From assembly GCA_035541435.1 (NCBI GenBank), contig DATKNL010000002.1:3962-67961 (forward strand): DNA of 64,000 nucleotides, written 5' to 3'. The notes beneath the pieces were generated by a model. The model was not told the origin of the DNA, made no database searches, and worked only from the letters and a program-made list of their open reading frames with translations. The translations under genes and the position numbers were made by a program. Shown piece by piece: positions 2,858 through 48,901 of the stretch (within the stretch, counting starts at the first letter, position 1; the number at the start of each line of letters is the position of its first letter). The DNA is from Minisyncoccota bacterium. Its GTDB lineage: Bacteria > Patescibacteriota > Minisyncoccia > UBA6257 > 2-01-FULL-56-20.

Positions 2858-3253
2858 CTATTGGCCGCCCAGCAGACCGCGGACGCGGCCCGCGATCACG
2901 TCGAGGTCGGACGTCTTGTCGATGAAGTCGTCCATGCCCATGCCCTTGGTCACGTCGCTGCGGTCGGCGGTGATCGTCGGCCACGGATCCTTCATGTTGC
3001 TCAGGAACGCGATGCGGATGTCCTTCGTGTCGGGATGGTTCTTGATGCTCAGGGCCGCGTCGGTGCCGGTCTCGCCCGGCATGTGGATGTCCATCAGGAT
3101 GAGGTCGGGGTGCAGCTTGAACGCGGCGTCGACGGCCTCCTGCGCGTTGAACGCGACGACCGGCTCGAATCCGGCTTCGGCAAGCTTCGTCGAGACGATC
3201 TCGAGGATATTCTGCTCGTCATCGACGACGAGGATGAGCGGTTTGTCCCTCAT
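2858..3253 (-). CDS. Stand-alone response regulator receiver (CheY-like)
   Basis: LILVVDDE, phospho-acceptor [10 protein letters not shown], conserved S/T and K positions; no output domain. Confidence 0.75.
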
Positions 3254-3261
3254 GCTGGATG

Positions 3262-3657
3262 TCAGGCGAGGAAGCTCTTGATGTGCGAGGCGAGGACGTC
3301 GAGGTCGTCGGTCTTCTTGAGATAGCCCTGCGCGCCGAAGTCCTCGGAGAACTTGATGTTGAGCTGCTGCATGTCGAGCCGCGGGTCGCCGAGGCTCGTG
3401 AGGAACGCCACCTTGACGCCCTTCACGGCCGGATCCTCGTCGGCGCGGATCGCGAGCACGGCGGCGGCGCCGTCCATCACCGGCATGTTGACGTCCATGA
3501 GGACGAGGGCCGGCTTGAGCTCCTTCACCTTCTTGACCCCTTCCTCGCCGTTCGCGGCGGTTTCGACGCGGTAGCCCTCGGAACCGAGCTTCATGCCGAA
3601 GATCTCGCGAAAGTTCGCGTCGTCGTCGACTATCAGGATGAGCGGTTGATCAGCCAT
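3262..3657 (-). CDS. Stand-alone response regulator receiver (CheY-like), second of a tandem pair
   Basis: [33 protein letters not shown]; start at internal ATG 3657, the longer ORF is a high-GC extension. Confidence 0.75.
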
Positions 3658-3696
3658 GGATTTTTTATTATTATAGCACAGAACCCATCCGGGACC

Positions 3697-4425
3697 ATGG
3701 CACAAGGCACCATCATCGAAATACGCGCGGGGGCCGGCGGCGACGAAGCCGCCATTTTTGCGGGCGACCTGGCGCGCATGTATCAGCGGTATTCGGCGAA
3801 GCGCGGCTGGCGCTTTTCGATCCTTGACGCCAACGAGACGTCGCTTCAGGGCTACAAGTCCCTGGTGGCCGAGGTCGCGGGCGAAGGCTCCTATGAGGCC
3901 TTCGAGCACGAGTCGGGCGTGCACCGGGTGCAGCGCATCCCGAAGACCGAACGGTCGGGCCGCGTCCACACCTCGACCGCCTCGGTCGCCGTCCTGCCGA
4001 TCGTCGAGGCCCGCGAGGTGAACATCAACCCGAACGACCTCGAGGTGACCTTCTCGCGCGCCGGCGGTCCCGGCGGACAGAACGTCAACAAGGTTGAGAC
4101 GGCCGTGCGCATCCTGCACAAGCCGACCGGCATCGTGGTCGCCTCGCGCGAGGAACGCTCGCAGCACGCGAACCGCGAAAAGGCGCTCGCCGTCCTGCGC
4201 GCCAAGCTTCACGAGATCGAGACCCAGCGCGCGACGGGCAACGTGACCGATCTGCGCCGCGAGCAGATCGGCTCGGCCGACCGCTCGGAGAAGATCCGGA
4301 CCTACAACTTTCCCGACGACCGCATCACCGACCACCGGATCGGCAAGAAGTGGCACAACATCGAGAAGATCCTCGAAGGCGATATGGACGGCATCGTGAA
4401 GGCGTTCGAGTCGGGCGGCAAATAA
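3697..4425 (+). CDS. Class I peptide chain release factor, RF1-like, lacking N-terminal domain 1 (243 aa)
   Basis: Starts at the RAGAGGDEA motif (domain 2); [20 protein letters not shown] (PxT-type tripeptide is PKT); GGQ motif ([11 protein letters not shown]); [17 protein letters not shown]-terminal domain. The upstream in-frame region is antisense to a receiver gene and is not RF-like. Confidence 0.75.
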
Positions 4426-6936: not shown

Positions 6937-7398
6937 ATGATGCTGAGTTTTGAACAACTGCTTGGACGGTTCGTCGTGGCCCTCGTCGTAGGAGCCATTT
7001 TGGGCATCGAGCGCGAGCTCGTCGGCAAGGAGGCCGGCGTACGGACCGAGATGCTTGTCGCGGGCGGCGCCTCGATCTTCACCATGATCGGACTCATCCT
7101 TCCCTACGTGGCGGCTGCGAACGCGCATCTCGCGCCCGATGCGGCGACGATCACGAGCGGCTTCGGCATCGTCGCGAACATCGTGGTCGGCATCGGATTC
7201 CTCGGCGCGGGACTCATTTTGCACAACGGCGACCACATCAGGAACCTCACGACGGCGGCGATCGTCTGGATGACCGCCGCGATCGGCATCCTGGCCGGCC
7301 TCGGCCTTTTTGAATTCGCGTTCGCGACGGCGGTCATCGTGGCGGTCGTCCTCTATGCGCTGCGGGCCCTCAGGTTCAGCGAGGCATCCCTCAAATGA
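6937..7398 (+). CDS. mgtC: MgtC/SapB family membrane protein
   Basis: GAILGIERE signature, 4 TM helices. Confidence 0.7.
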   Translation: MMLSFEQLLGRFVVALVVGAILGIERELVGKEAGVRTEMLVAGGASIFTMIGLILPYVAAANAHLAPDAATITSGFGIVANIVVGIGFLGAGLILHNGDHIRNLTTAAIVWMTAAIGILAGLGLFEFAFATAVIVAVVLYALRALRFSEASLK

Positions 7399-8519
7399 CG
7401 AAACTCTATTACCATTGGATCAACCGCCCAACCGCGGGCGAGTTCAGGACCGGCGTTTCGCTTCACGGCCACACGTCGCGTTCCAACGAGAACCTGGCGT
7501 TCCTGCCGGGCGTGATCGAGGGAACGATGTTCCTGCCGAGCGTGATGCGCTGGGCCGAGAAGCACCACCGCCGCAAGTGGCACGAGGAGTTCGACTACAG
7601 CCGCGGCTATTGGAACTCCCCCGTCCTTCCCGAGCAGGCCTATGACCTCGAGGCCAAGCAGATCGCCGACGAGGGCCTTGAACCGCTCGTCTCGCTCACC
7701 GACCATGACGCGGTCGCCGCGTGCGCGGAGCTGCGCGCCAAGGACCGCCCCGTTCCCACGTCGCTCGAGTGGACGGCGCCCTATAAGACGGCGGTCTTCC
7801 ATATCGGGCTGCACAACATCCCTCAGGAGCACGCCGATGGGCTCCTGAAGGCGCTCCGCGACTATACGGCGAAGCCCGATCCTGCGACGCTCCGCGACAT
7901 CCTGAAGCACACGCACGGCATGCCTGACGCGCTCATCGTCCTCAACCATCCGCTCTCGGACCAGGGACGTATCGGCTTCGAGATCCATGTCTCGATGGTG
8001 GACGACTTCCTGTCGAACTTCGGCGACTTCATCCACGCGCTCGAGCTGAACGCCCTGCAGCCGTGGGATATGAACCGCCGCGTCGCCGCGATCGGCACCC
8101 GCGTGCGCCTGCCGCTCATTTCGGGCGGCGACCGCCACGGCTTCGAGCCGAACGGCGCCATCAACCTTACGAACGCGACGACGTTCGCCGACTTCGCCCA
8201 CGAGATCCGCGACAAGAAGAGCGCGCTCCTCTTCATGCCGCAGACCAAGGAATCGCTCCGCTACCGCTACGCCGAGAACGTGCGCATGATCATGGACTAT
8301 TATCCGAACCTCGGCCCCCAGGCCGCCTGGTTCAGCCGCATCTTCTATCAGTGCCCCGACGGCGTCGTGCGGACCTTCGGCGAGCTCGTCGGCAGGCGCT
8401 ACCGGGCGCTCGATATCACGACGCTCGCGCTCGGCTTTTTCAGTTCGGCCGTGGACCAGATCGTGCGGCCCGTCGCGCCGATCTTCTCAGGTTCGGACAA
8501 GCAGAAGGTCATCGGCTAG
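7395..8519 (+). CDS. PHP-domain (polymerase/histidinol-phosphatase-like) metal-dependent phosphoesterase
   Basis: SLHGHTSRS, LTDHD, GGDRH motifs; ATGA overlap with mgtC-like stop (translational coupling). Confidence 0.5.
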   Translation: MTKLYYHWINRPTAGEFRTGVSLHGHTSRSNENLAFLPGVIEGTMFLPSVMRWAEKHHRRKWHEEFDYSRGYWNSPVLPEQAYDLEAKQIADEGLEPLVSLTDHDAVAACAELRAKDRPVPTSLEWTAPYKTAVFHIGLHNIPQEHADGLLKALRDYTAKPDPATLRDILKHTHGMPDALIVLNHPLSDQGRIGFEIHVSMVDDFLSNFGDFIHALELNALQPWDMNRRVAAIGTRVRLPLISGGDRHGFEPNGAINLTNATTFADFAHEIRDKKSALLFMPQTKESLRYRYAENVRMIMDYYPNLGPQAAWFSRIFYQCPDGVVRTFGELVGRRYRALDITTLALGFFSSAVDQIVRPVAPIFSGSDKQKVIG

Positions 8520-15334: not shown

Positions 15335-16654
15335 TTAGCGGTGCGACGGCGCCGTCGGCGCGAATGACGACAGCTGGGGATGCCCTTCCTTCAGGATGAA
15401 TTCCAGGCGCTCGCAGATGCGGTGCGCCGTCGGCGTCGCGAAGCCGAGTCCGGCGCGGCTCCGCGGCAGGCTGAGGATTTCGGAAACGTGCTCCGGGGTG
15501 ATGACGCCGCGGATCCGCTCGTTGAGCACCTCGTCAAGCTGCATGACCTGCAGGCTGTTCAGCACGCCGTGGTAGTCCTCGAGAAGCCACCGCCTCAGCT
15601 TCTCGATGTCGTCTTTGAGCGGCGCCTCGCGGTCGGTCTCGAGCTGATGATAGATGTCGCCCACCGTGCGGCGTTCAGCGATCACGTCCTCGATGATGGA
15701 ACTCACCTTGGCGGCCTTCTGCCGCCACAGTCCCAATCCCCCCTCGCGCCACGGACGGTCGAGCACGTTCCGGAAGACGTCCGCGTCGATCTTGCCGTCG
15801 AGCCGCTGGGCAAGGAAGAATTCGAACCGCTTCAGCTCGGGCGCGGCATAGCCCCTCAGGAACAGGTTCGAGAACGAATGCGCGGCAAGCTGGTGCTCGG
15901 ACATCCCGGGCGACAGCCGGCCGTACATCGTCTTCGAAAGCGCCTGCTGCACGGCCTGCTCCCCCACGCCGTCCTCCTTGGTGACGACGCCGTCCTTCAT
16001 ATAGAAAATCTTCTTCGCGTCGCGCAGGCTCCACGCCTCATGGGTCACCATGATGATCGTGCGGCCGTCCTTTTCGTTGAGCTCCTTCAGGAACTGCAGC
16101 ACCGTGTCGGCGTTCGATGAATCGAGGTTGCCGAGCGGCTCGTCCGCGATGATGATCGGCGGGTTGTTGGCGAGGGCGCGCACGATGCCCACGCGCTGCT
16201 GCTGGCCGCCCGAAAGCTCGTCGGGATAGCGGTCGGCAAGGTGCGCGATGTTCACGCGCTCAAGCAGCTTCATCGCCTCGCGCTTCGAACGGTCCTCGGA
16301 CACGCCGAGGAAGGACATCGGCAAGATGACGTTCTGCACGACGGTGAGCGACGGGATGAGGTTGAACTGCTGGAAGATCATGCCGACGCCGATCTGCCGG
16401 TAGATGGCGAGCTCCTGCCGCGTGAACGTCGATATGTCGCGGCCGTTGATGACGATCCTGCCGTCCTGACCCGGCTCGATGCCCGAAATGAGATAGAGCA
16501 GCGTCGTCTTGCCGGACCCCGACGATCCGAAGAAGGCCGCGTATTCCCCGGGGTAGATGTCGCACGAAACGTCCTTCAGCGCGTGATATTCGTTCGGCTT
16601 GCCGCGCTCGTACCAAAAATTGACGTTCTCGAGCCGGATGATGGGTTCGCTCAT
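15335..16654 (-). CDS. ABC transporter ATP-binding protein (MacB/LolD-like) with ~210-aa C-terminal extension of unknown function
   Basis: Walker A GSSGSGKTT, signature LSGGQQQR, Walker B IIIADEP, H-loop; extension residues ~225-439. Confidence 0.8.
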   Translation of the reverse strand: MSEPIIRLENVNFWYERGKPNEYHALKDVSCDIYPGEYAAFFGSSGSGKTTLLYLISGIEPGQDGRIVINGRDISTFTRQELAIYRQIGVGMIFQQFNLIPSLTVVQNVILPMSFLGVSEDRSKREAMKLLERVNIAHLADRYPDELSGGQQQRVGIVRALANNPPIIIADEPLGNLDSSNADTVLQFLKELNEKDGRTIIMVTHEAWSLRDAKKIFYMKDGVVTKEDGVGEQAVQQALSKTMYGRLSPGMSEHQLAAHSFSNLFLRGYAAPELKRFEFFLAQRLDGKIDADVFRNVLDRPWREGGLGLWRQKAAKVSSIIEDVIAERRTVGDIYHQLETDREAPLKDDIEKLRRWLLEDYHGVLNSLQVMQLDEVLNERIRGVITPEHVSEILSLPRSRAGLGFATPTAHRICERLEFILKEGHPQLSSFAPTAPSHR

Positions 16655-17094
16655 GGGTGGACGGCCTTCCCGACGACGTTGTTGATGATCTCGACCAGGT
16701 CCTTCGGCATGGTCTGCTCCTTGTGGATATAGCCGTCGGCCCCCTTCGCTTCGGCCTCCTCCTGGAATTCCTTCTCCGAATGGCCGGAGAAGATCAGCAC
16801 CTTGATGTCCTTCGTCGCAGGATCGCGCTTGATCCGCTCGAGGAAGGCGAAGCTGTTCTCGGGATCGATGATCGTTCGGTCCTCCACCTTTTTCGGGATG
16901 GCGAGGTCAAGGAAGACGACGTCGGGCCGCGACGCCGGATCGGCGACGGCCTTTTCGGCGTCGTCGAGGTTCTGGGCTACCGCGAGGTCGCAGGTGCGCT
17001 CGAACCCGTAAATCCAGAAGACGTCGTGAAAATAGATTCTGATGATCTCGTCGTCGTCCACCAGGAGTATTCGCGTCTTGGGGTCATGGCTCAT
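16651..17094 (-). CDS. Stand-alone response regulator receiver domain protein
   Basis: ILLVDDDE, VVFLDLAIP, KVLIFSG; start 1 nt after the giant gene stop. Confidence 0.7.
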   Translation of the reverse strand: MSHDPKTRILLVDDDEIIRIYFHDVFWIYGFERTCDLAVAQNLDDAEKAVADPASRPDVVFLDLAIPKKVEDRTIIDPENSFAFLERIKRDPATKDIKVLIFSGHSEKEFQEEAEAKGADGYIHKEQTMPKDLVEIINNVVGKAVHP

Positions 17095-17095
17095 G

Positions 17096-20000
17096 TCACT
17101 TTTGGATGTTCCGCATGAACTGGAACGTGTTCTCGAAATTGTTCAGGATGACGTCGAGGATCGACTGCGACTGCTGCGAGACGATCATCGTCTGCGGCGG
17201 GAATGCCGCGGTGTTCGAGGCCTGGTCGGTCGACGCGACGCGCACGCGGTACACGGCGCCCGGCACGAGGTTCGGCACGATCACCACGTGGCTTGTGACG
17301 AAGCTCGACAGGTCCTGCACCGTATGGGCATAGGTCGACGTGGGGCCCCCTACCCCCTGGTCGTATTGTACCACGGAGTTCGCCGGCTTATCGGTCATCC
17401 AGCCGACGATCGCCTGGGCCACGTTCGGCGACTGCGGGTCGATGATCGTCTGGATCCGGATGTTCGAGATGACGGGCGCCACCGTGTCCTTCGTCGTCCT
17501 CACCGTTACCGGGCTCGCGGCGGCGATCAGGTTGCCGTTCGCCGTATTGCCCGAGACGGTCACGAGATAGGTCGACGCCGGGGTCAGGTTCTGCACCGTC
17601 ACGCTGTGCACCGTGACCAGCGCGTCGTCGGTGATCGTCTGGGTGACGCCCGTCTTCGCGTCGCGATACTGGACGATCGAATTCGTGTCGCCGTCGGTCG
17701 TCCACGAGACCTGGAAGCTTGTCGGCGTGACTTTCGATACCTGCGGAACCACCTTGGCCGCGGCCGTGATGAAGGTGACGTCGCCGCTCTTGCCGAAGAC
17801 GCCCGGGATGCTGAACGATTCCGCCATCGCGTGATAGAGCGTGTTCGGCTGCAGGCCCGTGACCGTCACGGTGTGGGTCGCCACCTTGGTATTGACCTCC
17901 GACGACTGGGCGTCATAGGGATTGGCGGTCGATGTCGCGCCCGTGAAGTCGGCGTCGGTCGCATAATAGACCACCGAATAGGATTTGATGTTGGTCGTCC
18001 AGCGCACGGTCGCGCTGTTCTGGCCGACGTCGGTCACGACGGGCTGGCTGAGGAACGGGGGCACGAGGCTCGGGAGGGCCGAGGCGATGCTGTTCTCGAT
18101 CTCCTGCTGAAACTCATAGGCGTTCGCGATCGTGGTCGAGGACGAGAGCGAGGCCTCGGTGAGGTACTGGGTCGCGAAGGTCGCGTCGGTGGTCGACGCC
18201 TCGTTGCCGGACCGGTCGATCGCCCGTACGTAGAAATGATAGGTCGTGCCCATGACGAGCCCCTTCGCCGAGATGGTGTGGACCGTGCCGAACGCGCGGT
18301 CGGCGGCGGCTAACCCGTAATCGGTGCTCGTGCCGTAATCCACGAAGCCGACCGCCGGCTCGTCGGTAATGAAGCTCACGGTCGCGTCGAACGGCGTCGT
18401 CGTGGCGACGACGTCCGTGATCTTGGGCGGCACGGTGTCGGCCGCGCTCGTCACGACATAGCCGGTCGAATAGACGTACTGCGTCTTCGGGGTGTCCTGC
18501 GTCGCGAACGAATAATCGCCCGACACGCCCTCGCTGCCGGCGCTCGAGTCGGACCGGACGCGGTAATGATAGGTGGACGCCGGCACGAGGTCGGACAGGG
18601 TGACCGCATGATAGGTGCCGAGCGTGGGGTCGAGCGCCGTGCTCGACGGATAGGTCCCGGTCGCCGAACCGTAGTCCACCTGGCTCGTGCCGTTGCGGTC
18701 GGTGCTCCAGAGGATCACCGCCGTCGACGTGCCCGTGATCGGCGCGCTCACCCCCGTGATCGTCGGCGGACGGTGGTCGGTCGTCGTGAACTGGTAATAG
18801 TGGCTGAAGTTGTTGTCGAGGTGCGGAACGCCGTTCGCGTCGTCGGACTCGAGGTAGAACTCATAGGTCGTTCCCGGCGCAAGGCCGTCGATCACGACCG
18901 AATGCTGGAAGGGCGCCGTGCCGCCGACGAGCGTCGACGTGCCGACGTCCATGACCGCGCCTCCCCCGCTCGCCGGGACGAAATAATGGACGATCGAATC
19001 CGAATCCATCGACGTCTGCCAGCCGATGATCGCCTCGGTGTCGCCTGCATAGGTCGTCGTCACGCCCGTGAAGACCGGCGCGAGGGTCGTGAACGTCTGC
19101 TCGGTCGACGTCGCCTCGTTGCCCGCCGCATCCTTCACGTGGATGACGTAGTAATAGGTCGTTTCTGCCGCGAGGTCCGAGAGGAAGATCTCGTGATTCG
19201 CCGCGAGCGTCGACGTGGCGACGCTCGCCGTGTAGGCTTCGGTCGACGTGCCATAGAGGATGGTTCCGTCGGTGAACTTGCTGGTCGACCAGGTGATGGC
19301 CGCCGAATCGCCCGAGACGAACGGCACGGCGACGTTCGAAATGAGCGGCGACTGGGAATTCGTGGTCGTGAACGAATAGTAGGCGCCCGCGCTGTTGTCG
19401 ATCGCGACATCGCCGATGCCGTCGGTCGACTGGACGTAGAAATAATAGGTTGTGGACGGCGTGAGGCCGCCGAGGGTTATCGCGTGATGGAACGGCGCCG
19501 CGCCTCCGACGGACGAGGCGTTGCCGGTCGACGTCGCGAAGGAACCGGGCGTCGTCGCATAGAAGACATAGCCGTTCGCATCGACGTTCGTGTCCCACGC
19601 CACCGTCGCGCCGATATCGGACGGCGAAGACGTGACGTCCGTGATGACGAGCGGCGGAGCGACCGGCGCGAGGGTCGTGAACGTCTGCTCGCCCGACGTG
19701 GCGGCATTGCCGGCGTTGTCGACCGACTTCGCCACGTAATAATAGGTCGTCGAAGCGGCGAGGCCGGCGAGCGACGCAACATGCGATGCCGTCATGGGCG
19801 ACGTGTCGCCAAGGGCGGTCGATGACGCATAGATGCCCGATGCCGTTCCATAGAGGACCTGCGAATTGGAAAGCTTGTCCGTCGTCCACGAGACCGTTGC
19901 CACCGTCTGGCTTTGGGCCGAGGCGCTCACGCCCGTGATGACCGGCTTCGCGCTGTTCGTCGTCGTGAACTGGTAATATTGGCCGCTATTGCGGTCGATC

Positions 20001-23000
20001 GTCGTGTCGCCGTACGGGTCGACCGACTGCACGTAATAATAGTAGGTCGTCGACGGCGTGAGGCCCGTGATGACGAGGGCGTGGGACGTCGTCTGGGTCG
20101 AGCTCACGGCCGATCCGCTGATCGTCGAGGTCGATGTCCCGAAATAGACGCCCGAGTCGCCGTTCGAACCGGTGGTCCAGGCGACCGTCGCGGTGAAGTC
20201 GGTCGTCGTTGCCGAGACTCCCGAGATCGAGGGGCCCGGCGGACTGAGCGTCGTCACGGTGGAGGTGGCGAAGCTCTCGTTGCCGAACTGATCGACGGCG
20301 TGGATGCGGTAATAATAGAGCGTCGTCGGCGTGAGACCGGTGATCGACTGCGAGTGCGAGGTCGTGTAGGAATTGTCCAATGTGGTCGATGCGCCATAGG
20401 ACGTCGTCGTGCCATAGGCGATCTGCGACGTCGCGCCCTTGTCCGTCCCCCAGGTAATCGTCACGTTGCTCTGGCCGACGGCCGGGGTCTGGATGCTCGA
20501 GATCGCGGGCGGAACCGTGTCTTTGGCGGTCGTGAAGGAATAATAGGCGCCCCCGTTCGAATCCTTCGTGCCGTTTCCATATTGGTCGGTCGAGCGGACG
20601 TCGAGATAATAGGTCGTGGACGGCGTGAGTCCGGAAAGCGTCACCGAATGGTTCATGGCGAGCGTCGTGGTTCCGATCGTCGAATAGGGCGAGAACGCGA
20701 GGCTCGTCGAATAGTCGACGTTCGCATCGGCCGCCTTGTCGGTCGCCCACGTGATGGTCGCGGTCGAGGTCGCAACGCCGCTCACCGTCGTGCTCGTGAT
20801 CACCGGCCCGAACTGCAGCGTTGCGAACGACTGGCCGGACGACGTCGCGACGTTGTTCCCCGAATCCGTCGACTGCACATAGAAATAATAGGTGGTCGAC
20901 GCGGCAAGGTTGTTGAGTGTCAGGTCGTGGAACGTGACATAGGACGAGGTCGGCCCCGCGACGGAGTTCGGATAGGTCCCGGATGCGGTCCCATAGAAGA
21001 GGGCCGAGTTCGCCGGCTTGTCGGTCACCCAGTTGATCTCGGCGGAATTCTGCGACGGGTTCGCGTTGATCGACGAGATCTGCGCCGGATGGCTGTTCGT
21101 CGCCATGAACGTGTAATAGGCGTAGTTGTTGTTGTCGACGGACGTGTTGCCGATCGAGTCGACCGACTGCACGTAGAAATAATAGGTCGTCCCCGGCACG
21201 AGGCCCGTGATGTTCGCCGTGTGGACATAGGGTCCCGATCCGCTTTCGAGTGCCGGCGCCGAGCTTGCGTTGCCCTGCGCAAGCTGGGCCGACGAAGCGG
21301 CATAGAACACGAATCCGGTCGAATCGACGTTCGTGTTCCACGTCACGATCGCCGACGTATCGAGCGATGACGTCGCCACGTTCGAAATGGACGGTCCCCC
21401 GCCGCGGCCGGTCGGCGTGATGAACACCTGCGGCGAGAAGGCCGAAACGTTGCCCTTGGTGTCGGCGACCCTGACCTTGTAGTAATAGGCGATGTTGTTT
21501 GGCATGAGTCCCGTGTCGCCGAAATAGGGATTGGTCGTCGTCGCGTACGGGGCGTAGCTGCCCGACGTCGACCGCCAGATGTCATAGCGAAGGAAGTTCG
21601 ACGCCGTGCTTGTCGCCCACGAAAGGTAATCCGAATAGACGCCCGTATAGACGTTCGACGTGTCCTTCACGACGATGCCCGTCGGCGCGGGAGGCATGGT
21701 GGCCGTAAAGGCATAGTCGTTGCCGTAATTGTCGACGACCTCATAGGACAGCGTCGGCGACGTCGACGAGGAGAAGATCCACGATATCGTCCCGGTCGCG
21801 AATGAGCTGCTGAGGGTCTGCCATTGGCCGCTCGTCGGATTGAGGCCGTCGGCTGCGGCCGACGAGCTGCCGTTCGCAAACCGATACTTCACGGAACCGT
21901 TGCCGAGGAATGCGAACGAAAGCGCTCCCTGCGAGATGTCGGCGACGATCGTCTGTCCCGTCGCCCACGTCGATACGTCTCCGTCGGTGTCGGTCACCTT
22001 CATGCGATAGAAATAGGTCTGCCCCTGCACGGCGCCGTTGTCGGTAAAGGAATTCGACGACTGGTTGGTGCTCGTATAGATCGAAGCGAACGCACCGCCG
22101 GACGAACGGTCAAGCTCATAGGACGCAAACGCGGCTCCGGGCGCATTCGCATAGGACGACCACGAGATGATGTTCCCCGACACGGACAGGTTCTGGGGCG
22201 ACTGCGGGGCCGCGTTCGAAACGACGATATCGTTGCCATAGACGTCCTGCACCTCGGCATAGGCCGTCAATCCCGCCCCGAGCACGAGCGACTTGGTGCC
22301 GCTTGCCGTCCCGGCCGGCGCCATGGTCCACGGCACCGATGACGAGGGCGTCGAGGACGAGATGCTGGTCGTCGCGAACCGGTACATGAACCCGCTCGCA
22401 TCCGCAAAGGAATAGGTCAGGGTGTTCGAAGCGATGTTCAGGTTGGTGAGCGAGGCGGTCGGCGGCTGCGTGTCGATCGTGAACGCCGAACTGGTCGCCG
22501 TCGCCGTGTTGTTCGCAAGCTGATGGTCGTCGAGCGTCACGCGGATCTGCGAGCTTGTCGCATAAGCTGACCCGATGCCGGGTTCCGCAGCGGGATTCCA
22601 GATGACGGTCTGGTTGATGAACGAGGTCGTCGCAAGCACGATGTCGGACGTCGCATTCGCCGTCACGAACTGCGTCATCGTCTGCCATCCCGATCCGACA
22701 TTATATTGATAAGTCGGCGTCACGGTTCCCGTCGCATGCCCGTTCGCGGCCCCGTCCGTCGTATAGTCGATGTCCTTGAAGCGATAGGTGAACGTGACAT
22801 CGCCCACATGGCTCGCGTCGGTCGTCGTCGTGTTGTCCGCCTGCGTGATGCCCGTTCCCCCGCCATAGGACGCGTCGAAGGCCGGCGCGGAGTTGACAAC
22901 GTACTTCACCGTAACACCCTGAACGGCTGGCGCGGTCACGCCGTTCGAGGTCTCGGTGACCTGATACTGCCACCACCGGGAATTCGATTTCAGTGCCGCA

Positions 23001-26000
23001 GGGATGGCGGATCCGCTGCACGAAACCGAAGGATACGCCGAGAAGACGACGTCGGCACCCACGTCGGTCGTTCCGAAGCTCTGGTTCGGGAACGCTCCCG
23101 CGCTCGCGGCATAGACGCCGGCACTGCCCGTAAGCACCCCGTTCGTAATCGGGAAAGCAGCCGAGCCGCTCGGCCAGGAATTTGGGTCGGCGTCATTGTA
23201 GGAGACGACATAGTTCTTGCCCGCTGTAATGGTGAGCGGCGTCGCCAGGTTCTGCTGCTGCCATCCTGACGCCGATTCGCCGGTGAATGTCGTCGATGCG
23301 AGCAGGACATGGCTCGTGGCGTCCCAGATGTTTCCGACGTGGGTTCCCGTGTTGCCGGCCAGCTTATAGAAACGGACCGCGGTGATCTGCCCCGCTTGCG
23401 CGCTCGAAAAGGTCGTGCCGAGCTCGGTCCAGCCGTACGTTATGCCTCCATTCGAAAAAGTCTGATTCGTATGGACGCTCGATGTCGCCACAGCCGCCGT
23501 CGTACAGCCGGCCGTAGATTCGGTGAAGTTCGACCAGGTCGTTCCAAGGCCCGCCGAGGACGTTGCCGACGAGATGGCGACGGTGACGCCGTTTCCCGTC
23601 GAGGTCGTCTCGCTCCAATCGACTTCGCCGATAACATCGGACGGATCGGTCGAATCGTACGGCTGGGACTTCAGCGTGCCGAGACTCGCGTACCGAGACG
23701 GCGTATAGAACCGCTCGGAAATGTTGCTGTAGGTGCTGAGGTCGGTTGAATCGTAAAGGAAGCCGATTGTGCCCGTACTCGAAATCATGGGGGTGTAGCT
23801 GCCGTCATCCTGGATGTAAAGGAGGGTACTCGAAGCGATCGTGGTCGAAGCCGACCACGTCTGCCCCCCGTCGGTCGATTGCTGCATGAGGAGCAGATGG
23901 GATGTCTGGTTGATATAGGAAAGGATGAGCGTGCCGCTCGAATATGCGAGTGAGGACAACCGCGGATTCGTCGGCGTTACGAAGCTTGCCGACGTCGGCG
24001 TCGAGGTCCCGCTGCCGGTATAGATATTGAGGCGGTTCTGACCGTTGTAGTCGTAAACCACATAGGTCTTTCCGGTGCCGTCCACGATGATCGAGGGGCT
24101 CATATGGCTGAGGCCGTCCGCCGAACTTAGGGCGACCTGCGAACTCCAGGAGGTTCCGCCATTCGTCGAATAGGCAAACATGGGATAGAAAGAAACCCCG
24201 TCAAGCTCCTTCGAGGAATAGACGAGATAGAGGATGTTGCCGGGGCCTTCCGCCAGTGCCGGCACTTGCATCGCGTTGCCCGTGCCCGAATAGTTGATCG
24301 TTCCGGCGAGGGACCAGGACTGCCCGTTGTTGGTCGACTTATAGATGTCGATGGCCGTCGTGCGCGAGGTCGCGAGGTAATAGTTGCCGCTGTAGGCACC
24401 CCGCGTGAGGCCAATGCCGTTTGCGTTGTAGTTGTATCCCGACGTGGTTGCCACGGCAACAAACGACCACGTTGACCCGTTGTTCAGCGAATAGCGGGTC
24501 ATTACGCCCATATACGGGTTGACCTCTTTCGCGGTATAGGCAATAACGATCGATCCGTTATTGCCGGCGATTTGGACGGTATTCACCCCGACCGCTGACG
24601 GGACGAACATGCTTGTCGTGCTTGCCGTGAGGGCGACGGGCGTACCGCTCGCCGAATTGATGTATTCGAGGTTGTTGACGAAATGGTTCGGGTCGGCATC
24701 GAGGGACAGATAGGCAGCATGCACCGTGCCGCTCGAATCCTGGAAGGAATAAACGTTGGATGCGGTGGGGTTGCCCCAGAGCTGGGAGACGTCAGTGCGG
24801 GCGCTCCAGGTCGCCCCGCTCGACGTGGAGTAGCGGTACGCTATGTTGAAAAGCGACGGATTGAATGCCTCTGATTGATCCGTCACGTGAATCTTGCCGC
24901 TTGCATCGACCCCAGCGGCAGGAAAACGATCGCTGGAATTGCTGAGGTTGACGCTCGATGTAGCGCACAGGGTGTTCCAGTTGTCACAATAATTGAGGGC
25001 TCCTGCGGCCCATTGATAGACGAACCCGATCTTGCCGAGACCTTCTATGAACGCGCTGGTTCCGTTGGTGATGGTGTTCTGCGAGCTCGTGACCGGCGCG
25101 CTCCACGAGGAATAGTTCGTCGAGGTCACGAAGTATGAAAACGAGGTTATGTTGTTGATGTAATTTATGTAAGCGGTATTCGAGGCATCTACGAGCATCT
25201 GGCTGACATAATAATTGGTATTCACGGGTCCATTCGTGATGTCGATCCGGTTGTGCCAGTTATTGGAGTTCCTGTAGGCGATCTGGGAGAGCGATGACGA
25301 CGCCTCGAATGATCCGTAGGAAATATGAATGATGCCGTTCGGAGCGATCGCGACGCTGGGATTGGCAACGTTGCCGCCGGTCGTCGATGTCGTGACGTCG
25401 GTTCGTCCTGACCACGATTGCCAATTCGACGACGAAGATGCCGATCGCAGCACGACATTGAGCAACGCGGTGCCTGAAAATTCCTGTGAGGTATAAGCGA
25501 TATAGACGGCGTTGTTCGCGTCGACCGCGATGCTCGGCGAAGCCGCACTCTTGTTCGCGGTTGCCACCACCACTGGAGCCGACCAGACCTGCCACGAGGT
25601 CGAGGCAAGCGCGTAACGGTACGACACGTTCGTCGCCCCGGATTCGGTCGAATCATAGGCGAGATGGACGTTGCCGGCGCCGTCGACCGCCATCGAAAGG
25701 TGGTTATAGGTGAGGCCCGACGTCGCGTTGGTGATGCAGACCAGCGAGTTCCAGTTCTGCGAATCGCGATAGACAAGGTTGTTGAACCCGTTACACTCGC
25801 CGGAATTATAAACCACATGAACGATGCCGCTCGTCGAAATGACCATCGCATTGTAGCCGGTACCGGCCGACCACAGGAGCTTCGGAACGTTCTGCGTCAG
25901 GTCGATGCGGCTCCCGAGCGATGCCGTCGTCGTTGCAAGCGACAGGTTCGTCGACGTCGTGACGCTTGTCGCGCTCGCGTATTGGGTCGATGTCGGTGCG

Positions 26001-26143
26001 GGACTTGCGAGGGTTCCCGCCGTCTGTCCCCCGCTCCACGAGCTCTGGGTGAAGGTGTATGTCGTCGCCTGCGCGACGCCGAACACGCAGAACGACAGCG
26101 CGCCTACGATGAGGCCAACGATAAGGCCGCTCCGTTCGTGCAT
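17096..26143 (-). CDS. Giant secreted surface protein (~3015-3069 aa): signal peptide, Asp-box/BNR repeat region, then >=15 tandem Fn3-like ~100-aa repeats
   Basis: Signal peptide MHERSGLIVGLIVGALSFCVFGVAQA; Asp-boxes SLNNGSTWS, STNNGQSWS, STNGGTSWS, STDGGQTWS; repeats with ITWxTDK...YGT...LxGLxPxTTYY(Y/F)xVxSxDxxGN. Start could also be 26170 or 26305. Confidence 0.8.
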   Translation of the reverse strand: MHERSGLIVGLIVGALSFCVFGVAQATTYTFTQSSWSGGQTAGTLASPAPTSTQYASATSVTTSTNLSLATTTASLGSRIDLTQNVPKLLWSAGTGYNAMVISTSGIVHVVYNSGECNGFNNLVYRDSQNWNSLVCITNATSGLTYNHLSMAVDGAGNVHLAYDSTESGATNVSYRYALASTSWQVWSAPVVVATANKSAASPSIAVDANNAVYIAYTSQEFSGTALLNVVLRSASSSSNWQSWSGRTDVTTSTTGGNVANPSVAIAPNGIIHISYGSFEASSSLSQIAYRNSNNWHNRIDITNGPVNTNYYVSQMLVDASNTAYINYINNITSFSYFVTSTNYSSWSAPVTSSQNTITNGTSAFIEGLGKIGFVYQWAAGALNYCDNWNTLCATSSVNLSNSSDRFPAAGVDASGKIHVTDQSEAFNPSLFNIAYRYSTSSGATWSARTDVSQLWGNPTASNVYSFQDSSGTVHAAYLSLDADPNHFVNNLEYINSASGTPVALTASTTSMFVPSAVGVNTVQIAGNNGSIVIAYTAKEVNPYMGVMTRYSLNNGSTWSFVAVATTSGYNYNANGIGLTRGAYSGNYYLATSRTTAIDIYKSTNNGQSWSLAGTINYSGTGNAMQVPALAEGPGNILYLVYSSKELDGVSFYPMFAYSTNGGTSWSSQVALSSADGLSHMSPSIIVDGTGKTYVVYDYNGQNRLNIYTGSGTSTPTSASFVTPTNPRLSSLAYSSGTLILSYINQTSHLLLMQQSTDGGQTWSASTTIASSTLLYIQDDGSYTPMISSTGTIGFLYDSTDLSTYSNISERFYTPSRYASLGTLKSQPYDSTDPSDVIGEVDWSETTSTGNGVTVAISSATSSAGLGTTWSNFTESTAGCTTAAVATSSVHTNQTFSNGGITYGWTELGTTFSSAQAGQITAVRFYKLAGNTGTHVGNIWDATSHVLLASTTFTGESASGWQQQNLATPLTITAGKNYVVSYNDADPNSWPSGSAAFPITNGVLTGSAGVYAASAGAFPNQSFGTTDVGADVVFSAYPSVSCSGSAIPAALKSNSRWWQYQVTETSNGVTAPAVQGVTVKYVVNSAPAFDASYGGGTGITQADNTTTTDASHVGDVTFTYRFKDIDYTTDGAANGHATGTVTPTYQYNVGSGWQTMTQFVTANATSDIVLATTSFINQTVIWNPAAEPGIGSAYATSSQIRVTLDDHQLANNTATATSSAFTIDTQPPTASLTNLNIASNTLTYSFADASGFMYRFATTSISSSTPSSSVPWTMAPAGTASGTKSLVLGAGLTAYAEVQDVYGNDIVVSNAAPQSPQNLSVSGNIISWSSYANAPGAAFASYELDRSSGGAFASIYTSTNQSSNSFTDNGAVQGQTYFYRMKVTDTDGDVSTWATGQTIVADISQGALSFAFLGNGSVKYRFANGSSSAAADGLNPTSGQWQTLSSSFATGTISWIFSSSTSPTLSYEVVDNYGNDYAFTATMPPAPTGIVVKDTSNVYTGVYSDYLSWATSTASNFLRYDIWRSTSGSYAPYATTTNPYFGDTGLMPNNIAYYYKVRVADTKGNVSAFSPQVFITPTGRGGGPSISNVATSSLDTSAIVTWNTNVDSTGFVFYAASSAQLAQGNASSAPALESGSGPYVHTANITGLVPGTTYYFYVQSVDSIGNTSVDNNNYAYYTFMATNSHPAQISSINANPSQNSAEINWVTDKPANSALFYGTASGTYPNSVAGPTSSYVTFHDLTLNNLAASTTYYFYVQSTDSGNNVATSSGQSFATLQFGPVITSTTVSGVATSTATITWATDKAADANVDYSTSLAFSPYSTIGTTTLAMNHSVTLSGLTPSTTYYLDVRSTDQYGNGTKDSNGGAYYSFTTAKDTVPPAISSIQTPAVGQSNVTITWGTDKGATSQIAYGTTTSYGASTTLDNSYTTSHSQSITGLTPTTLYYYRIHAVDQFGNESFATSTVTTLSPPGPSISGVSATTTDFTATVAWTTGSNGDSGVYFGTSTSTISGSAVSSTQTTSHALVITGLTPSTTYYYYVQSVDPYGDTTIDRNSGQYYQFTTTNSAKPVITGVSASAQSQTVATVSWTTDKLSNSQVLYGTASGIYASSTALGDTSPMTASHVASLAGLAASTTYYYVAKSVDNAGNAATSGEQTFTTLAPVAPPLVITDVTSSPSDIGATVAWDTNVDANGYVFYATTPGSFATSTGNASSVGGAAPFHHAITLGGLTPSTTYYFYVQSTDGIGDVAIDNSAGAYYSFTTTNSQSPLISNVAVPFVSGDSAAITWSTSKFTDGTILYGTSTEAYTASVATSTLAANHEIFLSDLAAETTYYYVIHVKDAAGNEATSTEQTFTTLAPVFTGVTTTYAGDTEAIIGWQTSMDSDSIVHYFVPASGGGAVMDVGTSTLVGGTAPFQHSVVIDGLAPGTTYEFYLESDDANGVPHLDNNFSHYYQFTTTDHRPPTITGVSAPITGTSTAVILWSTDRNGTSQVDYGSATGTYPSSTALDPTLGTYHAVTLSDLVPASTYHYRVRSDSSAGSEGVSGDYSFATQDTPKTQYVYSTGYVVTSAADTVPPKITDVVATTTPFDATVSFITDEPAVGFVDYGTSTDYGLAAADRAFGTVHTISAKGLVMGTTYHFYVRAIDRSGNEASTTDATFATQYLTEASLSSSTTIANAYEFQQEIENSIASALPSLVPPFLSQPVVTDVGQNSATVRWTTNIKSYSVVYYATDADFTGATSTANPYDAQSSEVNTKVATHTVTVTGLQPNTLYHAMAESFSIPGVFGKSGDVTFITAAAKVVPQVSKVTPTSFQVSWTTDGDTNSIVQYRDAKTGVTQTITDDALVTVHSVTVQNLTPASTYLVTVSGNTANGNLIAAASPVTVRTTKDTVAPVISNIRIQTIIDPQSPNVAQAIVGWMTDKPANSVVQYDQGVGGPTSTYAHTVQDLSSFVTSHVVIVPNLVPGAVYRVRVASTDQASNTAAFPPQTMIVSQQSQSILDVILNNFENTFQFMRNIQK

Positions 26144-26346
26144 TCGGTATGAGCTGGTGTTCGGTGACATGCCGATCCGTATCCGTATAACTATCCTTTC
26201 CTTCATTGTAGGCCCGGAACAGCCGCTTAAAGCGAAAACTGTGGAAAAACGGGCCTTATGGGCGAAGCTTGGATGCTGAATCCTGCTAAACATTCTGGCA
26301 AACATTTCTGTTTGCCATATGTTTTTATTGAATTATCGGCTTTTCG

Positions 26347-27553: not shown

Positions 27554-29944
27554 CTATTCCCTCAGCCGCCGATAGATGTCGGCCTCAATCGCATGCCGTT
27601 CCTCACCGTATTTCACGCGGGAATACTCCTTCAGCTTCTCGGCGAATACCTTGTCCCCGCCGTTCCACGAGGTCGTTTCGATGCGGATATTGAAGGGTTT
27701 CGACGTCTGGCCATTGATCAGGATCTTCGCATAGGCGTTCAGGTTGTCGATGTTCAGCAGGTCGTTCTGGTCGAAAACCGGCTCGAACTGCTTCACGAGG
27801 AATTCCGCGTCCTGCACGCCGACGCGGAAGACGAGCTGTGAGCCCACGTTCCCGAAGACCGCGTCCTTGATCTTGTCGGTGAGCTGCGCGATGAACTGGT
27901 GAGCCATCGTGAGGTTGAGGCGGTATTTGCGGGCCTCGGACAAAATGGTCGAGATGGAATCGGTCGTGAAGTTCTGGAACTCGTCGATATAGAGGTTGAA
28001 GTCGCGGCGGCGGTCGGCGTCGGCGATGTCGACGCGCGAAAGCGCGGCCATAAGGATCTTGCCGGTGAAGATCATGCCGAGAAGCCCCGCATTGATGTCG
28101 CCGATGCGTCCTTTCGCCAGGTTGATGAGCAGGATCTTGCCGTCGTCCATCACCTCGCGGAAGCTGAACGCCGACTTCGCCTGGCCGATGATCGGCCGCA
28201 TGTAGTCGTTAGAAATGAAGTTGTTGAACTTCGACGTGATGTAGGGCGTCATGTTGGCGAGCGACGCCTCGCCGCCGGCCTTCACGGCCTCCTTTTCCCA
28301 GAAGTCCGCCACGATCGGATTGCGGATGCGCGCGAGCTTGCGCGTGCGGTACGCGGCGTCGGTGAAGACGCGCGGGACCTCCATGAGCGTCGCGGGCTCG
28401 TTCGCCATGTCCTCCATGAGGAGCAGGAGCGCGTTGCGCATGTACTGCTCGAACATCGGCCCCATCGTCTCGGGCGGGAACAGCTTATTGAAGATGCTCT
28501 GCATCTCGTTCACGATGAACGTCTTCTCTTCGGGACGCTCGTGATTGAAGTCGAGCATGTTGAGGCCGAGCGGGCGCGCGAGGTCGCCGGGGTTGAAATA
28601 GATGACGTCGTCGATGCGTTCGCGCGGCACGAACCCGAGCGCGTTCTCGACGAGGTCGCCGTGCGGATCGATGATCGCGACGCCCTTGCCCGCCCGGATG
28701 TCCTCGATGATCATGTTGCCGAGGAGCGTCGACTTGCCCGTGCCGGTCTGGCCGATCACATAGACGTGCCGCCGGCGGTCGTCGTCGGTGATGAAGACCG
28801 GCTTCGCCTGCCCCCTGAACGAGCTCTCGCCGACCTTCAGGCCCCGCTGCGGCAGGTTGTCGGGCGCGGGCGCCTCCTTCGACTTCAGCCATTTCACGTG
28901 CGGCGTCTCGGTCGACGAGATCGGGAAATGATAGAAGCTCGCGATCTCCTCGGCCGAAAGCGTCATCGCCTCGCCGTCGGCGAACAGGCGGTAGATGAAA
29001 TTGTTGATGCAGGATTTCGGGCTGCGCGGCTTCACCACCTTGAACTCGTTGCGCAACGGGCTGGCGAACTGGTTGAATCCGGCTGCCAGGCCGTCCAGGA
29101 TGTCGTCGGCCTGGAAGGGCGATCCCGCCGAGGCGACCAGCCGCACGTTCACCCTGAAGAGCGGCTTCGAGATCTTCATCTGCAGGGCCTTCACGGCCTC
29201 GTCGTCCACCACGCGGTCCTCCTGCTTCTGCTCCTTGGTCTTGGGGTTGAAGACCTCGACGACATCCGACGCCTCGACGGGAAAACCCTTTCCGAACACC
29301 TTTTTCAGCGATTCACCCTTCTTCAGCAGCTTGATGTAGTCCTGAATCGTCTTCTTGAAGCCGCCGGATGCCGGCGTGACGACCATCTGCAGCGCGGCGC
29401 CTTCGCCGACCTCGTTGATCTTCGAAAATGCGCCGATGATCCCCTCGAACGAGTCGATGCCGAGCTCGGCATAGGTCTTCACCGGCAGCGCGAAATTCTC
29501 TTTCTGCAGCAGGAACGCCGCCGCGGTCGCCCCGTGGACGTTGAAGATGTTGAAGTCGTCCTGCACGAGCTCGACGCTCGCGCCGGTCCACAGTCCCTGG
29601 ATCTGCTTCGCGGCGGTCTCGGCGGCGCGCTTCGGCACGCCGATATAGAAATGGATCTCCTCGCCCACGTGCGGCACGGCCATCTCGAAAACGACCGGCT
29701 GCCTGATCGCCGACAGGCCGCCAAGCAGCTGCTCGAAGTGCGCGAGTTCCGCCTTGAAGTCACCGTGTTCGGCGTTGCCGTTGGACGAAGCAGCGGACGC
29801 TCCGCTGCGCGGGATCTTTATGAGAAAAAGCGATGTCCCGAACGATGCGGCAATGCGCCGCCGCGCGATGGAACGCGCGATGAAATAGACGGCAACGCCG
29901 GCAAGCGTTCCGAGAACGACAGAAAAAAGGACGTACAATCCCAT
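27554..29944 (-). CDS. Membrane-anchored P-loop ATPase, VirD4/TraD-like (type IV coupling protein family)
   Basis: N-terminal TM, Walker A GQTGTGKST, Walker B LYIDEFQNF; true ATG at 29944. Confidence 0.5.
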   Translation of the reverse strand: MGLYVLFSVVLGTLAGVAVYFIARSIARRRIAASFGTSLFLIKIPRSGASAASSNGNAEHGDFKAELAHFEQLLGGLSAIRQPVVFEMAVPHVGEEIHFYIGVPKRAAETAAKQIQGLWTGASVELVQDDFNIFNVHGATAAAFLLQKENFALPVKTYAELGIDSFEGIIGAFSKINEVGEGAALQMVVTPASGGFKKTIQDYIKLLKKGESLKKVFGKGFPVEASDVVEVFNPKTKEQKQEDRVVDDEAVKALQMKISKPLFRVNVRLVASAGSPFQADDILDGLAAGFNQFASPLRNEFKVVKPRSPKSCINNFIYRLFADGEAMTLSAEEIASFYHFPISSTETPHVKWLKSKEAPAPDNLPQRGLKVGESSFRGQAKPVFITDDDRRRHVYVIGQTGTGKSTLLGNMIIEDIRAGKGVAIIDPHGDLVENALGFVPRERIDDVIYFNPGDLARPLGLNMLDFNHERPEEKTFIVNEMQSIFNKLFPPETMGPMFEQYMRNALLLLMEDMANEPATLMEVPRVFTDAAYRTRKLARIRNPIVADFWEKEAVKAGGEASLANMTPYITSKFNNFISNDYMRPIIGQAKSAFSFREVMDDGKILLINLAKGRIGDINAGLLGMIFTGKILMAALSRVDIADADRRRDFNLYIDEFQNFTTDSISTILSEARKYRLNLTMAHQFIAQLTDKIKDAVFGNVGSQLVFRVGVQDAEFLVKQFEPVFDQNDLLNIDNLNAYAKILINGQTSKPFNIRIETTSWNGGDKVFAEKLKEYSRVKYGEERHAIEADIYRRLRE

Positions 29945-29990
29945 CAATTCATTCTATCACAGCGATCCGCCCGCGATCCGGCGCGGTCCG

Positions 29991-38698: not shown

Positions 38699-39181
38699 TT
38701 AGGCTTTGAGCTTGCGGAGCGCCTCGAGCGTGGCCATCGCGTTCGTGAGCTTGTTCGGCGTGCGGCCGAGGATCTTCGCCGTGGCGTCCTTCACGCCCGC
38801 GAAGGCGAGAACGAAGCGGACGCTGCCGCCGGCGCGCAGGCCGTGGCCCTTGCTCGCAGGCTTGAGGAGCACCTTGGCGGCGCTGTATTTCGCAAGGACC
38901 TCGTGGGCGATCGTGCGCTGGTCCTTGAGGCTGATCGTGAGCATGTTCTTCCTGGCCTCGGTCTTCGCCTTGGCGACGGCCTGCTGGACGTCGAGGCCCT
39001 TCGCGACGCCGATGCCGACGCGGCCCTTCTCGTCGCCGAGGACGAGGGTCGCGCGGAACCTGAAGCGCTTGCCGCCGGCAACGACGCGCGTCACGCGCCG
39101 CATGTCGAGCACGCGCTCGCGGAATTCGCTCTTGACCGGCACGGCGCTATCGCGCCGCCTCTGGAATGTGGGTGCTGGCAT
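38699..39181 (-). CDS. rpsE: 30S ribosomal protein S5
   Basis: RVTRVVAGGKRFRFRATLVLGD. Confidence 0.9.
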   Translation of the reverse strand: MPAPTFQRRRDSAVPVKSEFRERVLDMRRVTRVVAGGKRFRFRATLVLGDEKGRVGIGVAKGLDVQQAVAKAKTEARKNMLTISLKDQRTIAHEVLAKYSAAKVLLKPASKGHGLRAGGSVRFVLAFAGVKDATAKILGRTPNKLTNAMATLEALRKLKA

Positions 39182-47147: not shown

Positions 47148-48164
47148 CTACGGGATGAGCGGCCGGAGGGCGGCGGCGTCGAGCGCATAGGCGCGCACGA
47201 AGGAATCGTCCACATGGGCATAGAGGGTGCCTTCGCCCTTCCTGCCGGGAACGAACTGGCTCGCGAACGTGATGGTGCGGGCCTCGCTGTCGCGGATCAG
47301 GGGCTGTTCGGACACCCATTCGATGCCGCCGTTCTCATAGTCATAGACGAAGAGCCCGACCGAAAACAGGCCGTGATGGATGCGGTCGTGCTTGCGCGTG
47401 TCGGCCTCGCGCCCGTTCATCACGCCGAGCAGCTTGCCCGCGCCCACGTCGATGAAGTCCCTCGGCAGCAGCGGTCCCGGCGACGCGTGGCCGGCGATCC
47501 ACGGGATGCCGTGTTCGGCAGGATGGAAGACCACGTCGCCGAACTCCCACGGCTCCCCCATCTCGAGCGCGACCGCCGACCGCACGACCGAATAGGTCAT
47601 GCCGTCGATCGTGTTGCTCGATTCGACGAGGTTGAACCGGTATCCCTCCTTGTTGAGCGGCGCGATCGAGACCTCCTTCGCGCCGTCCTGGCCGCTGTCG
47701 GTGAGGACGGGCAGCGTCATCGTGAGCGACATGAGGTCTCTGCCAACCGCGTGTCCCAGATGGACCCGCGTGTGCGCGTGGTTCGTGAGCGCGCCGTGGA
47801 AGATCGGCATCGTGAAATAGAGATGCATGAGGCCGGCTGCATCGTCGATCCAGATGTCGGGATCCTCGAGGCCGAGAAAGTCGTCGCCGCGACCCGTGAG
47901 GGACGCGATCATCTCCTTTTCGTGCCTGATCGGCAGGCGCTCGCCGATCGCGAAACGCCCCGCAGGGTCGAGCGCGATCCCGCGGAGCTCGCTGTGATCA
48001 AGCGCGCCGCCATCGACGAGGTCGCCCTCGCGGCTCGTGATGCAGCGCGCCACGCCGCGCTCGAACCGCGCGGTCGGATCAAGCGTGATCGCCATCACGT
48101 GCTTAAACCGCTCGTCGGTCTCGATCACGCGGCCGGGGAGTTCGCGGTAAGGCTCATGTTGCAT
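47148..48164 (-). CDS. Hypothetical β-propeller protein, possibly GH130/GH43-like (DUF377-like) glycoside hydrolase/phosphorylase
   Basis: 338 aa, Asp/Gly/Trp-rich propeller-like composition; weak family call from motif impression only; TATACT-N6-ATG. Confidence 0.35.
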   Translation of the reverse strand: MQHEPYRELPGRVIETDERFKHVMAITLDPTARFERGVARCITSREGDLVDGGALDHSELRGIALDPAGRFAIGERLPIRHEKEMIASLTGRGDDFLGLEDPDIWIDDAAGLMHLYFTMPIFHGALTNHAHTRVHLGHAVGRDLMSLTMTLPVLTDSGQDGAKEVSIAPLNKEGYRFNLVESSNTIDGMTYSVVRSAVALEMGEPWEFGDVVFHPAEHGIPWIAGHASPGPLLPRDFIDVGAGKLLGVMNGREADTRKHDRIHHGLFSVGLFVYDYENGGIEWVSEQPLIRDSEARTITFASQFVPGRKGEGTLYAHVDDSFVRAYALDAAALRPLIP

Positions 48165-48869: not shown

Positions 48870-48901
48870 AAATAAATTCCCCCTCGCGGGGGAATTTATT
48901 T
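48870..48901. terminator. Bidirectional terminator, perfect 14-bp stem (aaataaattccccc/gggggaatttattt) ending the tuf-rpsJ unit
   Basis: Seen directly; overlaps the rpsJ stop codon. Confidence 0.75.

Follow-up and report, generated by a model that had tools for sequence, protein, structure and literature searches.

A release factor 1 without domain 1 in a Paceibacterota bacterium

The 64,000-nucleotide stretch of DNA analysed here (the window) carries a single RF1-type gene, and its product is a class I release factor of 242 aa that lacks domain 1 altogether. We consider it likely that this gene is the housekeeping RF1 gene (the prfA orthologue) of a Paceibacterota (Patescibacteria/CPR) bacterium, and that its product acts at UAA and UAG, has lost all of domain 1 and works without RF3. 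Bacterial RF1 and RF2 are commonly assumed to include domain 1. In a review of release factor evolution, both canonically consist of three parts, and PrfH is named as the exception without the N-terminal domain. Our full-text literature search found no paper describing a housekeeping RF1 without domain 1 in Patescibacteria, and a literature search for prfB or prfC in CPR/Patescibacteria found no description of either. Below, we present the evidence on the protein itself, on its upstream region and its relatives, and on the alternatives to a housekeeping role.

Domain content and decoding residues

Several lines of evidence place the protein among the RF1s and define which part of it is missing. 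Firstly, the Pfam PCRF profile is matched only over its positions 101-194 of 194 (E = 8.5e-42), and behind this partial match lies a full RF-1 domain (E = 6.2e-39). Secondly, when the protein was compared with the NCBIfam models of the class I factors, as an earlier note made from the sequence alone had proposed, the two RF1 models (NF001859 and TIGR00019) came out on top with 362 and 353 bits, followed by RF2 (234 bits), PrfH (85 bits; 84.9 before rounding) and ArfB (54 bits). The curated cutoffs of these models are 400 and 423.25 for RF1, 370 for RF2, 166.65 for PrfH (TIGR03072) and 100 for ArfB. Thus, the protein does not reach the RF1 equivalog cutoffs either (362.3 versus 400, and 353.1 versus 423.25), because the first 104-113 model positions have no counterpart in it; the matches begin at model positions 105 and 114, respectively. 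Thirdly, phmmer aligned residues 4-238 with residues 106-340 of Thermus thermophilus RF1 with zero gaps. The best match among the PDB sequences was Thermotoga maritima RF1 (E = 1.5e-77), again without gaps. Identity is roughly 55% to the latter (1RQ0; estimated by eye from the gapless alignment) and 48% to T. thermophilus RF1 (Foldseek). Furthermore, the AlphaFold2 model of the protein has a mean pLDDT of 87.8 and superimposes on ribosome-bound T. thermophilus RF1 (PDB 4V63) with a TM-score of 0.90 and an rmsd of 2.2 Å over 242 columns.

The protein therefore shares with the canonical RF1s of T. thermophilus and T. maritima domains 2 to 4, the PxT tripeptide, the G/E helix tip, the H-T pair and the GGQ motif, and differs from them in lacking all of domain 1 (about 105 aa) together with the LLLPxDPxD linker. 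The earlier note had described a class I release factor without its N-terminal domain of about 105 aa and with the GGQ motif and C-terminal part intact. This description is borne out by the Pfam and NCBIfam matches and by the alignment to T. thermophilus RF1, which starts at residue 106 of the latter, and by the GGQ motif at residues 126-128 within the complete RF-1 domain. Its statement that the ORF begins exactly at the RAGAGGDEA motif needs correction, since the start lies 9 residues ahead of RAG. The GGQ domain is shared with ArfB, ICT1 and C12orf65. These factors, however, have no codon-recognition domain and use a C-terminal tail instead; their mechanism is not comparable. The window protein, unlike the GGQ-domain-only ArfB, has a complete domain 2/4 module.

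Table 1. Positions of the RF1 gene, its sequence motifs and the elements upstream of it in the window
Feature	Position	Strand	Remarks
Receiver-domain gene	3262-3657	-	ATG 3655-3657; Pfam Response_reg, E = 1.6e-19
Promoter-like TTGATC-17 nt-TATTAT (sigma-70-like)	3646-3674	+	ends 22 nt before the ATG of the RF1 gene; consensus match only
Spacer between the start of the divergent receiver gene and the RF1 start	3658-3696		39 nt
prfA-type RF1 gene, domains 2, 3 and 4 only	3697-4425	+	ATG 3697, stop TAA 4423-4425, 242 aa
G14-G15-D16-E17, tip of helix alpha5	3736-3747	+	G14/E17 correspond to T. thermophilus G116/E119
Q79-R-I-P82-K83-T84, RF1 'anticodon' loop	3931-3948	+	equivalent to T. thermophilus Q181 and P184-V185-T186
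PKT tripeptide, residues 82-84	3940-3948	+	
V90-H91-T92	3964-3972	+	corresponds to I192-H193-T194 of T. thermophilus
G126-G127-Q128, GGQ peptidyl-tRNA hydrolysis motif	4072-4080	+	invariant in the alignment

Residues were assigned to their T. thermophilus counterparts by the offset of +102 that follows from the gapless alignment (Table 1). In T. thermophilus RF1, as known from RF1-70S structures (4V63), U1 of the stop codon is read by G116 and E119, and its positions 2 and 3 by I192-H193-T194. Equivalents of all the residues that read UAA and UAG (G116, E119, Q181, PxT, H193 and T194) are present in the gapless alignment. In an alignment of 95 sequences, Q79, P82, T84, T92 and the GGQ motif are invariant and H91 is conserved in at least 90% of the sequences. 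The switch-loop region is likewise conserved with respect to canonical RF1.

The SPF tripeptide of RF2 is absent, and its position is occupied by PKT. The earlier note had read this tripeptide correctly; its view that PKT departs from the canonical RF1 motif is not supported, since eight residues (A, V, E, D, Q, K, S and L) occupy the middle place in a set of 81 RF1s. Within the short clade to which the window protein belongs it is K, E, A or S, and PKT itself also occurs in the full-length RF1 of an Ignavibacterium (L049) and in a 317-aa Parcubacteria RF1 (L036). Because the P and the T are invariant and the residue between them is variable, PKT represents ordinary P-x-T variation and, judged from these alignments, is no signal of an altered specificity. 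The tripeptide of mtRF1a is reported to be PKT as well. The latter is an RF1-type factor (E = 4e-65 to 7NQH chain BL) that retains domain 1, unlike the window protein.

The same residues bear on whether the factor might be omnipotent, that is, whether it also reads UGA in a lineage that has lost RF2. The fetched DNA contains no RF2 gene, an observation of little weight because this DNA consists of RF1 neighbourhoods only, and UGA ends 16 of the 52 ORFs in the window. On the other hand, the residues that determine UAA/UAG specificity are the same as those in the RF1s of organisms that have RF2, and the few clade-specific substitutions that exist all lie outside the decoding loops. We consider an omnipotent factor highly improbable. 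A tally of stop codons, another check proposed in the earlier note, showed that all three stops are used in the window, in line with the standard code: TAA closes 24, TGA 16 and TAG 12 of the 52 ORFs that are 100 aa or longer. As TAG ends the genes for EF-Tu, SecY, L15 and S7, RF1 activity is needed for highly expressed essential genes.

Upstream region, relatives and loss of domain 1

The reading frame of the RF1 gene is open upstream as far as position 3238, 153 codons before the ATG. This could be taken as a sign that a mis-assembly, a frameshift or a wrongly chosen start hides a normal RF1 of 360 aa, or that the gene is a pseudogene. Such an artefact is effectively refuted by several observations. 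First, the open stretch is the antisense of a bona fide receiver-domain gene on the minus strand (Table 1), so that, as the earlier note had recognized, it holds no hidden domain. Second, a promoter-like element lies directly upstream of the gene; one such site was found, compared with 0.1 expected in shuffled sequences, and a -10-like TAT(G/A)AT element is present at the matching place in the relatives L002 and L008. With the putative promoter ending 22 nt before the ATG, the leader would be short and would leave no room for an upstream coding extension. (A terminator-like hairpin at 3736-3753, inside the RF1 gene, was also inspected and is within chance expectation.) Third, as detailed below, most relatives have in-frame stops just upstream of the gene, the same short architecture turns up on about 24 contigs that come from unrelated samples and assemblers, and dN/dS is about 0.1.

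Another alternative is that the gene has been split, with domain 1 encoded separately and joining the protein in trans. Domain 1 is an autonomous, flexible helical domain (PMC1586002), and given its low sequence conservation, a diverged copy standing alone could easily escape detection. Nevertheless, an HMM made from 66 domain-1 sequences of RF1s, with which the reduced domains of CPR members do score, gave no match at E <= 10 in the window, in L001 or in the short-form loci when all six-frame ORFs of 50 aa or more were searched. Furthermore, the intermediate forms described below resemble a progressive erosion and not a fission, and we regard a split gene as very unlikely. Both a frameshift that would restore domain 1 and an upstream exon-like start, which the earlier note had raised, were looked for; neither was found: the region upstream is taken up by the antisense receiver gene and the 39-nt spacer, and the domain-1 HMM is without a match.

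The short form is widespread. An identical protein has been deposited for a MAG named 'Candidatus Paceibacterota bacterium', where it is encoded on contigs of 110-133 kb. The best 120 clusters listed (clustered at 90% identity) are 82-100% identical to the query and 231-286 aa long, and among them only P0111 (286 aa) exceeds 253 aa. A scan of GTDB species genomes gave the relatives L002-L010 (65-85% identity) with short RF1 genes of 239-250 aa; some are from MAGs assigned to Jorgensenbacteria and Liptonbacteria, and L002 is carried by a complete chromosome of 829 kb (OY970354.1). In these relatives an in-frame stop is found 5-31 codons upstream of the match, with the exception of L006, where the frame is open over 81 codons and the sole ATG lies 4 codons upstream. 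About 14 further short genes were found in a scan of metagenome contigs, on contigs of 34-50% GC. In all, the short architecture is present on about 24 independent contigs, most of them with in-frame upstream stops. Public databases already list the short proteins, either as 'PCRF domain-containing protein' or as 'peptide chain release factor 1'; the NCBI name of the window protein is just the former.

Two groups of candidates were rejected in the course of this survey. P0193, P0245, P0260, P0147 and others (260-286 aa) had been considered as short forms, but they keep the 'LLPxDPxD' linker and are truncated calls of normal RF1s. Similarly, P0121, P0123 and P0127 (477, 481 and 293 aa), which had been considered as tandem or two-stretch release factors, carry exact internal duplications of parts of RF1 and are most likely assembly artefacts.

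The short gene is also well conserved. Its dN/dS with respect to L002 and L003 is 0.105-0.116, at a dS of at least 1. Between the window and L002 the RF1s are 83-85% identical, compared with 77% for AspRS, 67% for the receiver protein and 59% for the NUDIX protein; the value for NDK is lower as well. By these sequence-based measures, the short RF1 gene is functional and under strong purifying selection, and is neither an artefact nor a pseudogene.

The length of what remains of domain 1, expressed as the number of residues ahead of the first strand of domain 2, shows a gradient across 81 aligned RF1s. Bacteria outside the CPR have 102-115 residues there. Most Parcubacteria have 73-80, corresponding to the loss of helix 1 and part of helix 2, and single lineages are intermediate with 48 or about 21 residues. 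In the window's clade, only 0-4 residues are left. Compared with the Parcubacteria RF1s of 312-341 aa, which follow the same trend of N-terminal shortening and keep a helical remnant, the window protein keeps none. Partial shortening is also seen outside the CPR: the 342-aa RF1 of T. maritima enters domain 2 at about residue 88.

Neighbour-joining trees of domains 2-4, which carry no support values or bootstrap, place the window RF1 within the CPR RF1s. Each fetched locus gave one release factor. The window, L002-L010 and L082-L088 form one short-form clade in these trees, and its sister group (L011, L089 and L093) carries a non-helical tail of 20-30 residues. A second short clade (L091, L092, L094 and L098) adjoins L090, which retains a full domain 1 (63% identity), and L016 and L097 are further, isolated short forms. 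This topology suggests that domain 1 was completely lost several times independently, a count that is only suggested because the trees lack support values. The direction of the change is clear from the gradient and the trees: secondary erosion of a normal RF1. As a separate observation, domain 1 is replaced in L016, L011, L089, L093 and P0270 by a W/K/Q/E-rich non-helical tail of 20-30 residues, for example 'MDWQEWKKSQANVETESRQGE', which could represent either a remnant or a short motif that arose anew.

Proposed function without domain 1

The earlier note had left open whether the gene encodes a streamlined RF1 or a specialised paralogue. Our results favour the streamlined RF1 and speak against the paralogue, which would be a PrfH-like or rescue-type factor acting alongside a full-length RF1 encoded elsewhere in the genome. 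The likeness to PrfH (RFH) is real: this class I release factor homologue also has the GGQ motif and a codon-recognition-like domain, and it too lacks domain 1 (PMC1586002). In addition, the window protein fails the curated RF1 cutoffs. However, the decoding loops of PrfH are altered and its gene always goes together with rtcB, while the decoding loops of the window protein are those of canonical RF1, with no indels, and no rtcB gene is nearby. The score against the PrfH model, 85 bits, falls far below the cutoff of 166.65, compared with 362 bits for RF1. The search for rtcB, which the earlier note had proposed for the whole genome and which we carried out at the loci, covered 11 mapped loci with a short form (L016 and 10 that are fully short), and in none of them does an RtcB-like gene adjoin RF1. 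There is no other conserved partner gene either. Most short-form loci have the L31 gene (rpmE) near the RF1 gene, a setting that resembles that of prfA, and the recurrent neighbours are L31, L25, an aldolase and a secreted peptidase; the closest relatives share the layout of the window, with two receiver genes, RF1, NUDIX, NDK and AspRS in this order. Furthermore, the protein nests within the CPR RF1 tree in a pattern of vertical inheritance with graded intermediates, its sequence is very highly conserved, and a pattern-limited scan gave one release factor match per locus or contig, including the 829-kb complete chromosome. A specialised paralogue is therefore unlikely.

A phmmer search with an RF1 query over the window, 161 loci and a 10-kb contig extension found neither an RF2 nor a second RF1. 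Likewise, the fetched loci, which amount to about 2.3 Mb and are all RF1-gene neighbourhoods, yielded no RF2, RF3 or PrmC; these negative results say little, because the fetched DNA only surrounds RF1 genes. When PrmC was sought next to RF1 with an E. coli probe, it was found beside prfA in 7 non-CPR loci and in none of the CPR loci. A CPR SecA, sought as a route to RF2 through secA-prfB synteny, was not found in the fetched loci.

How, then, might a housekeeping RF1 function without domain 1? The most economical mechanism is a normal RF1 cycle without the stalk contact and without RF3-assisted recycling. In such a cycle, the domain 2/4 module would read UAA and UAG in the A site through G14/E17, Q79, P82-x-T84, H91 and T92, and domain 3 would place the GGQ motif into the peptidyl-transferase centre and hydrolyse the peptidyl-tRNA, as in any RF1. 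The missing part is the helical domain that contacts the L11 stalk region and links class I factors to recycling by RF3. Once the peptide has been released, the factor would have to leave the ribosome unaided, by spontaneous dissociation, because domain 1, through which it would be coupled to RF3, is absent; weaker binding probably stands in for RF3. For the genome as a whole, we infer that this gene is the sole RF1, that prfC is absent and that a separate RF2 reads UGA.

Published work is relevant to this mechanism. According to the account of Mora et al. 2003 (Mol Microbiol 50:1467) given in PMC1586002, deletion of domain 1 from the E. coli release factors leaves codon-specific release intact and abolishes only the interplay with RF3, and the truncated RF1 works in vivo. 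The E. coli RF1 and RF2 engineered in that study, as described there, have the same architecture as the window protein. They are laboratory deletions for which that account reports slow growth, whereas the form found in the window is naturally fixed in a large clade under strong purifying selection. The short housekeeping RF1 of a very abundant environmental clade would thus be a natural confirmation of the 2003 deletion experiments.

RF3 is absent from 72 of 191 bacterial genomes, notably from small ones, and weaker release factor binding has been proposed as compensation for its absence (PMC1780047). Loss of RF3 alone is nevertheless insufficient to explain the deletion, because Bacillus and Mycobacterium lack RF3 (PMC1780047) and keep domain 1. 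It follows that domain 1 normally has another value, the loss of which is tolerated here. The short RF1 may therefore offer a handle on a role of domain 1 beyond RF3 coupling, such as an effect on the on-rate, accuracy or the stalk contact. For comparison, the RF1s of Bacillus and Mycobacterium are full-length, with domain 1 retained, and Mycoplasma RF1 is likewise full-length.

Tentatively, and with rather less than even confidence, we extend this reading to a large part of the Patescibacteria, which would use minimal class I factors that arose by stepwise erosion, with several complete losses. The contact with the L11/L7-L12 stalk and RF3 recycling would be dispensable on the ribosomes of these bacteria, RF2 would perhaps be truncated as well, and faster spontaneous dissociation would compensate. 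If this is true, the group amounts to a natural experiment on the purpose of domain 1. The short RF1 also adds to the picture of a simplified translation machinery in the CPR, and the window is also without an L30 gene. A practical consequence concerns annotation: the short RF1s score below the cutoffs and are named 'PCRF domain-containing protein', so that pipelines that rely on prfA may wrongly call RF1 missing. This would affect pipelines that score genome completeness or the genetic code by the presence of prfA in CPR genomes.

Other features of the window

The ribosomal protein genes include the whole S10-spc cluster and lie, together with the genes for EF-Tu, EF-G, S7 and S12, at about 36.9-58.0 kb. 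Just 7 nt separate the S5 gene (38699-39181, minus strand) from the L15 gene (38254-38691, minus strand), so that the L30 gene usually found there is missing; the absence of L30 at this place is a known hallmark of the CPR, and the window as a whole has a CPR-like appearance. An ORF of 338 aa without a Pfam match (47148-48164, minus strand) is located between the genes for S10 (48900-49223) and L3 (46328-46993). The S10 operon is normally tight.

Three stand-alone receiver-domain proteins of 131-147 aa without an output domain are encoded on the minus strand, at 2858-3253, 3262-3657 and 16651-17094. The first two, a tandem pair directly divergent from RF1, are kept in L002 and L008. A giant ORF of 3069 aa (17096-26305, minus strand), which ends in TGA, contains 12 purple-acid-phosphatase-N/fn3-like repeats, further fn3 domains and a DUF4082 domain, and its product is probably a cell-surface protein. 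A protein of 797 aa (27554-29947, minus strand) has domains of VirD4/TraG/TrwB-type coupling proteins of type IV secretion, and its gene adjoins that for phosphoglycerate kinase. On the plus strand, a 374-aa ORF without a Pfam match (7395-8519) is located downstream of a MgtC-family gene, and the same gene is called in L001.

Finally, the window has a GC content of 62%, which is high for Patescibacteria, and a GC3 of about 0.8-0.9; the relatives with a short RF1 have 34-52% GC.
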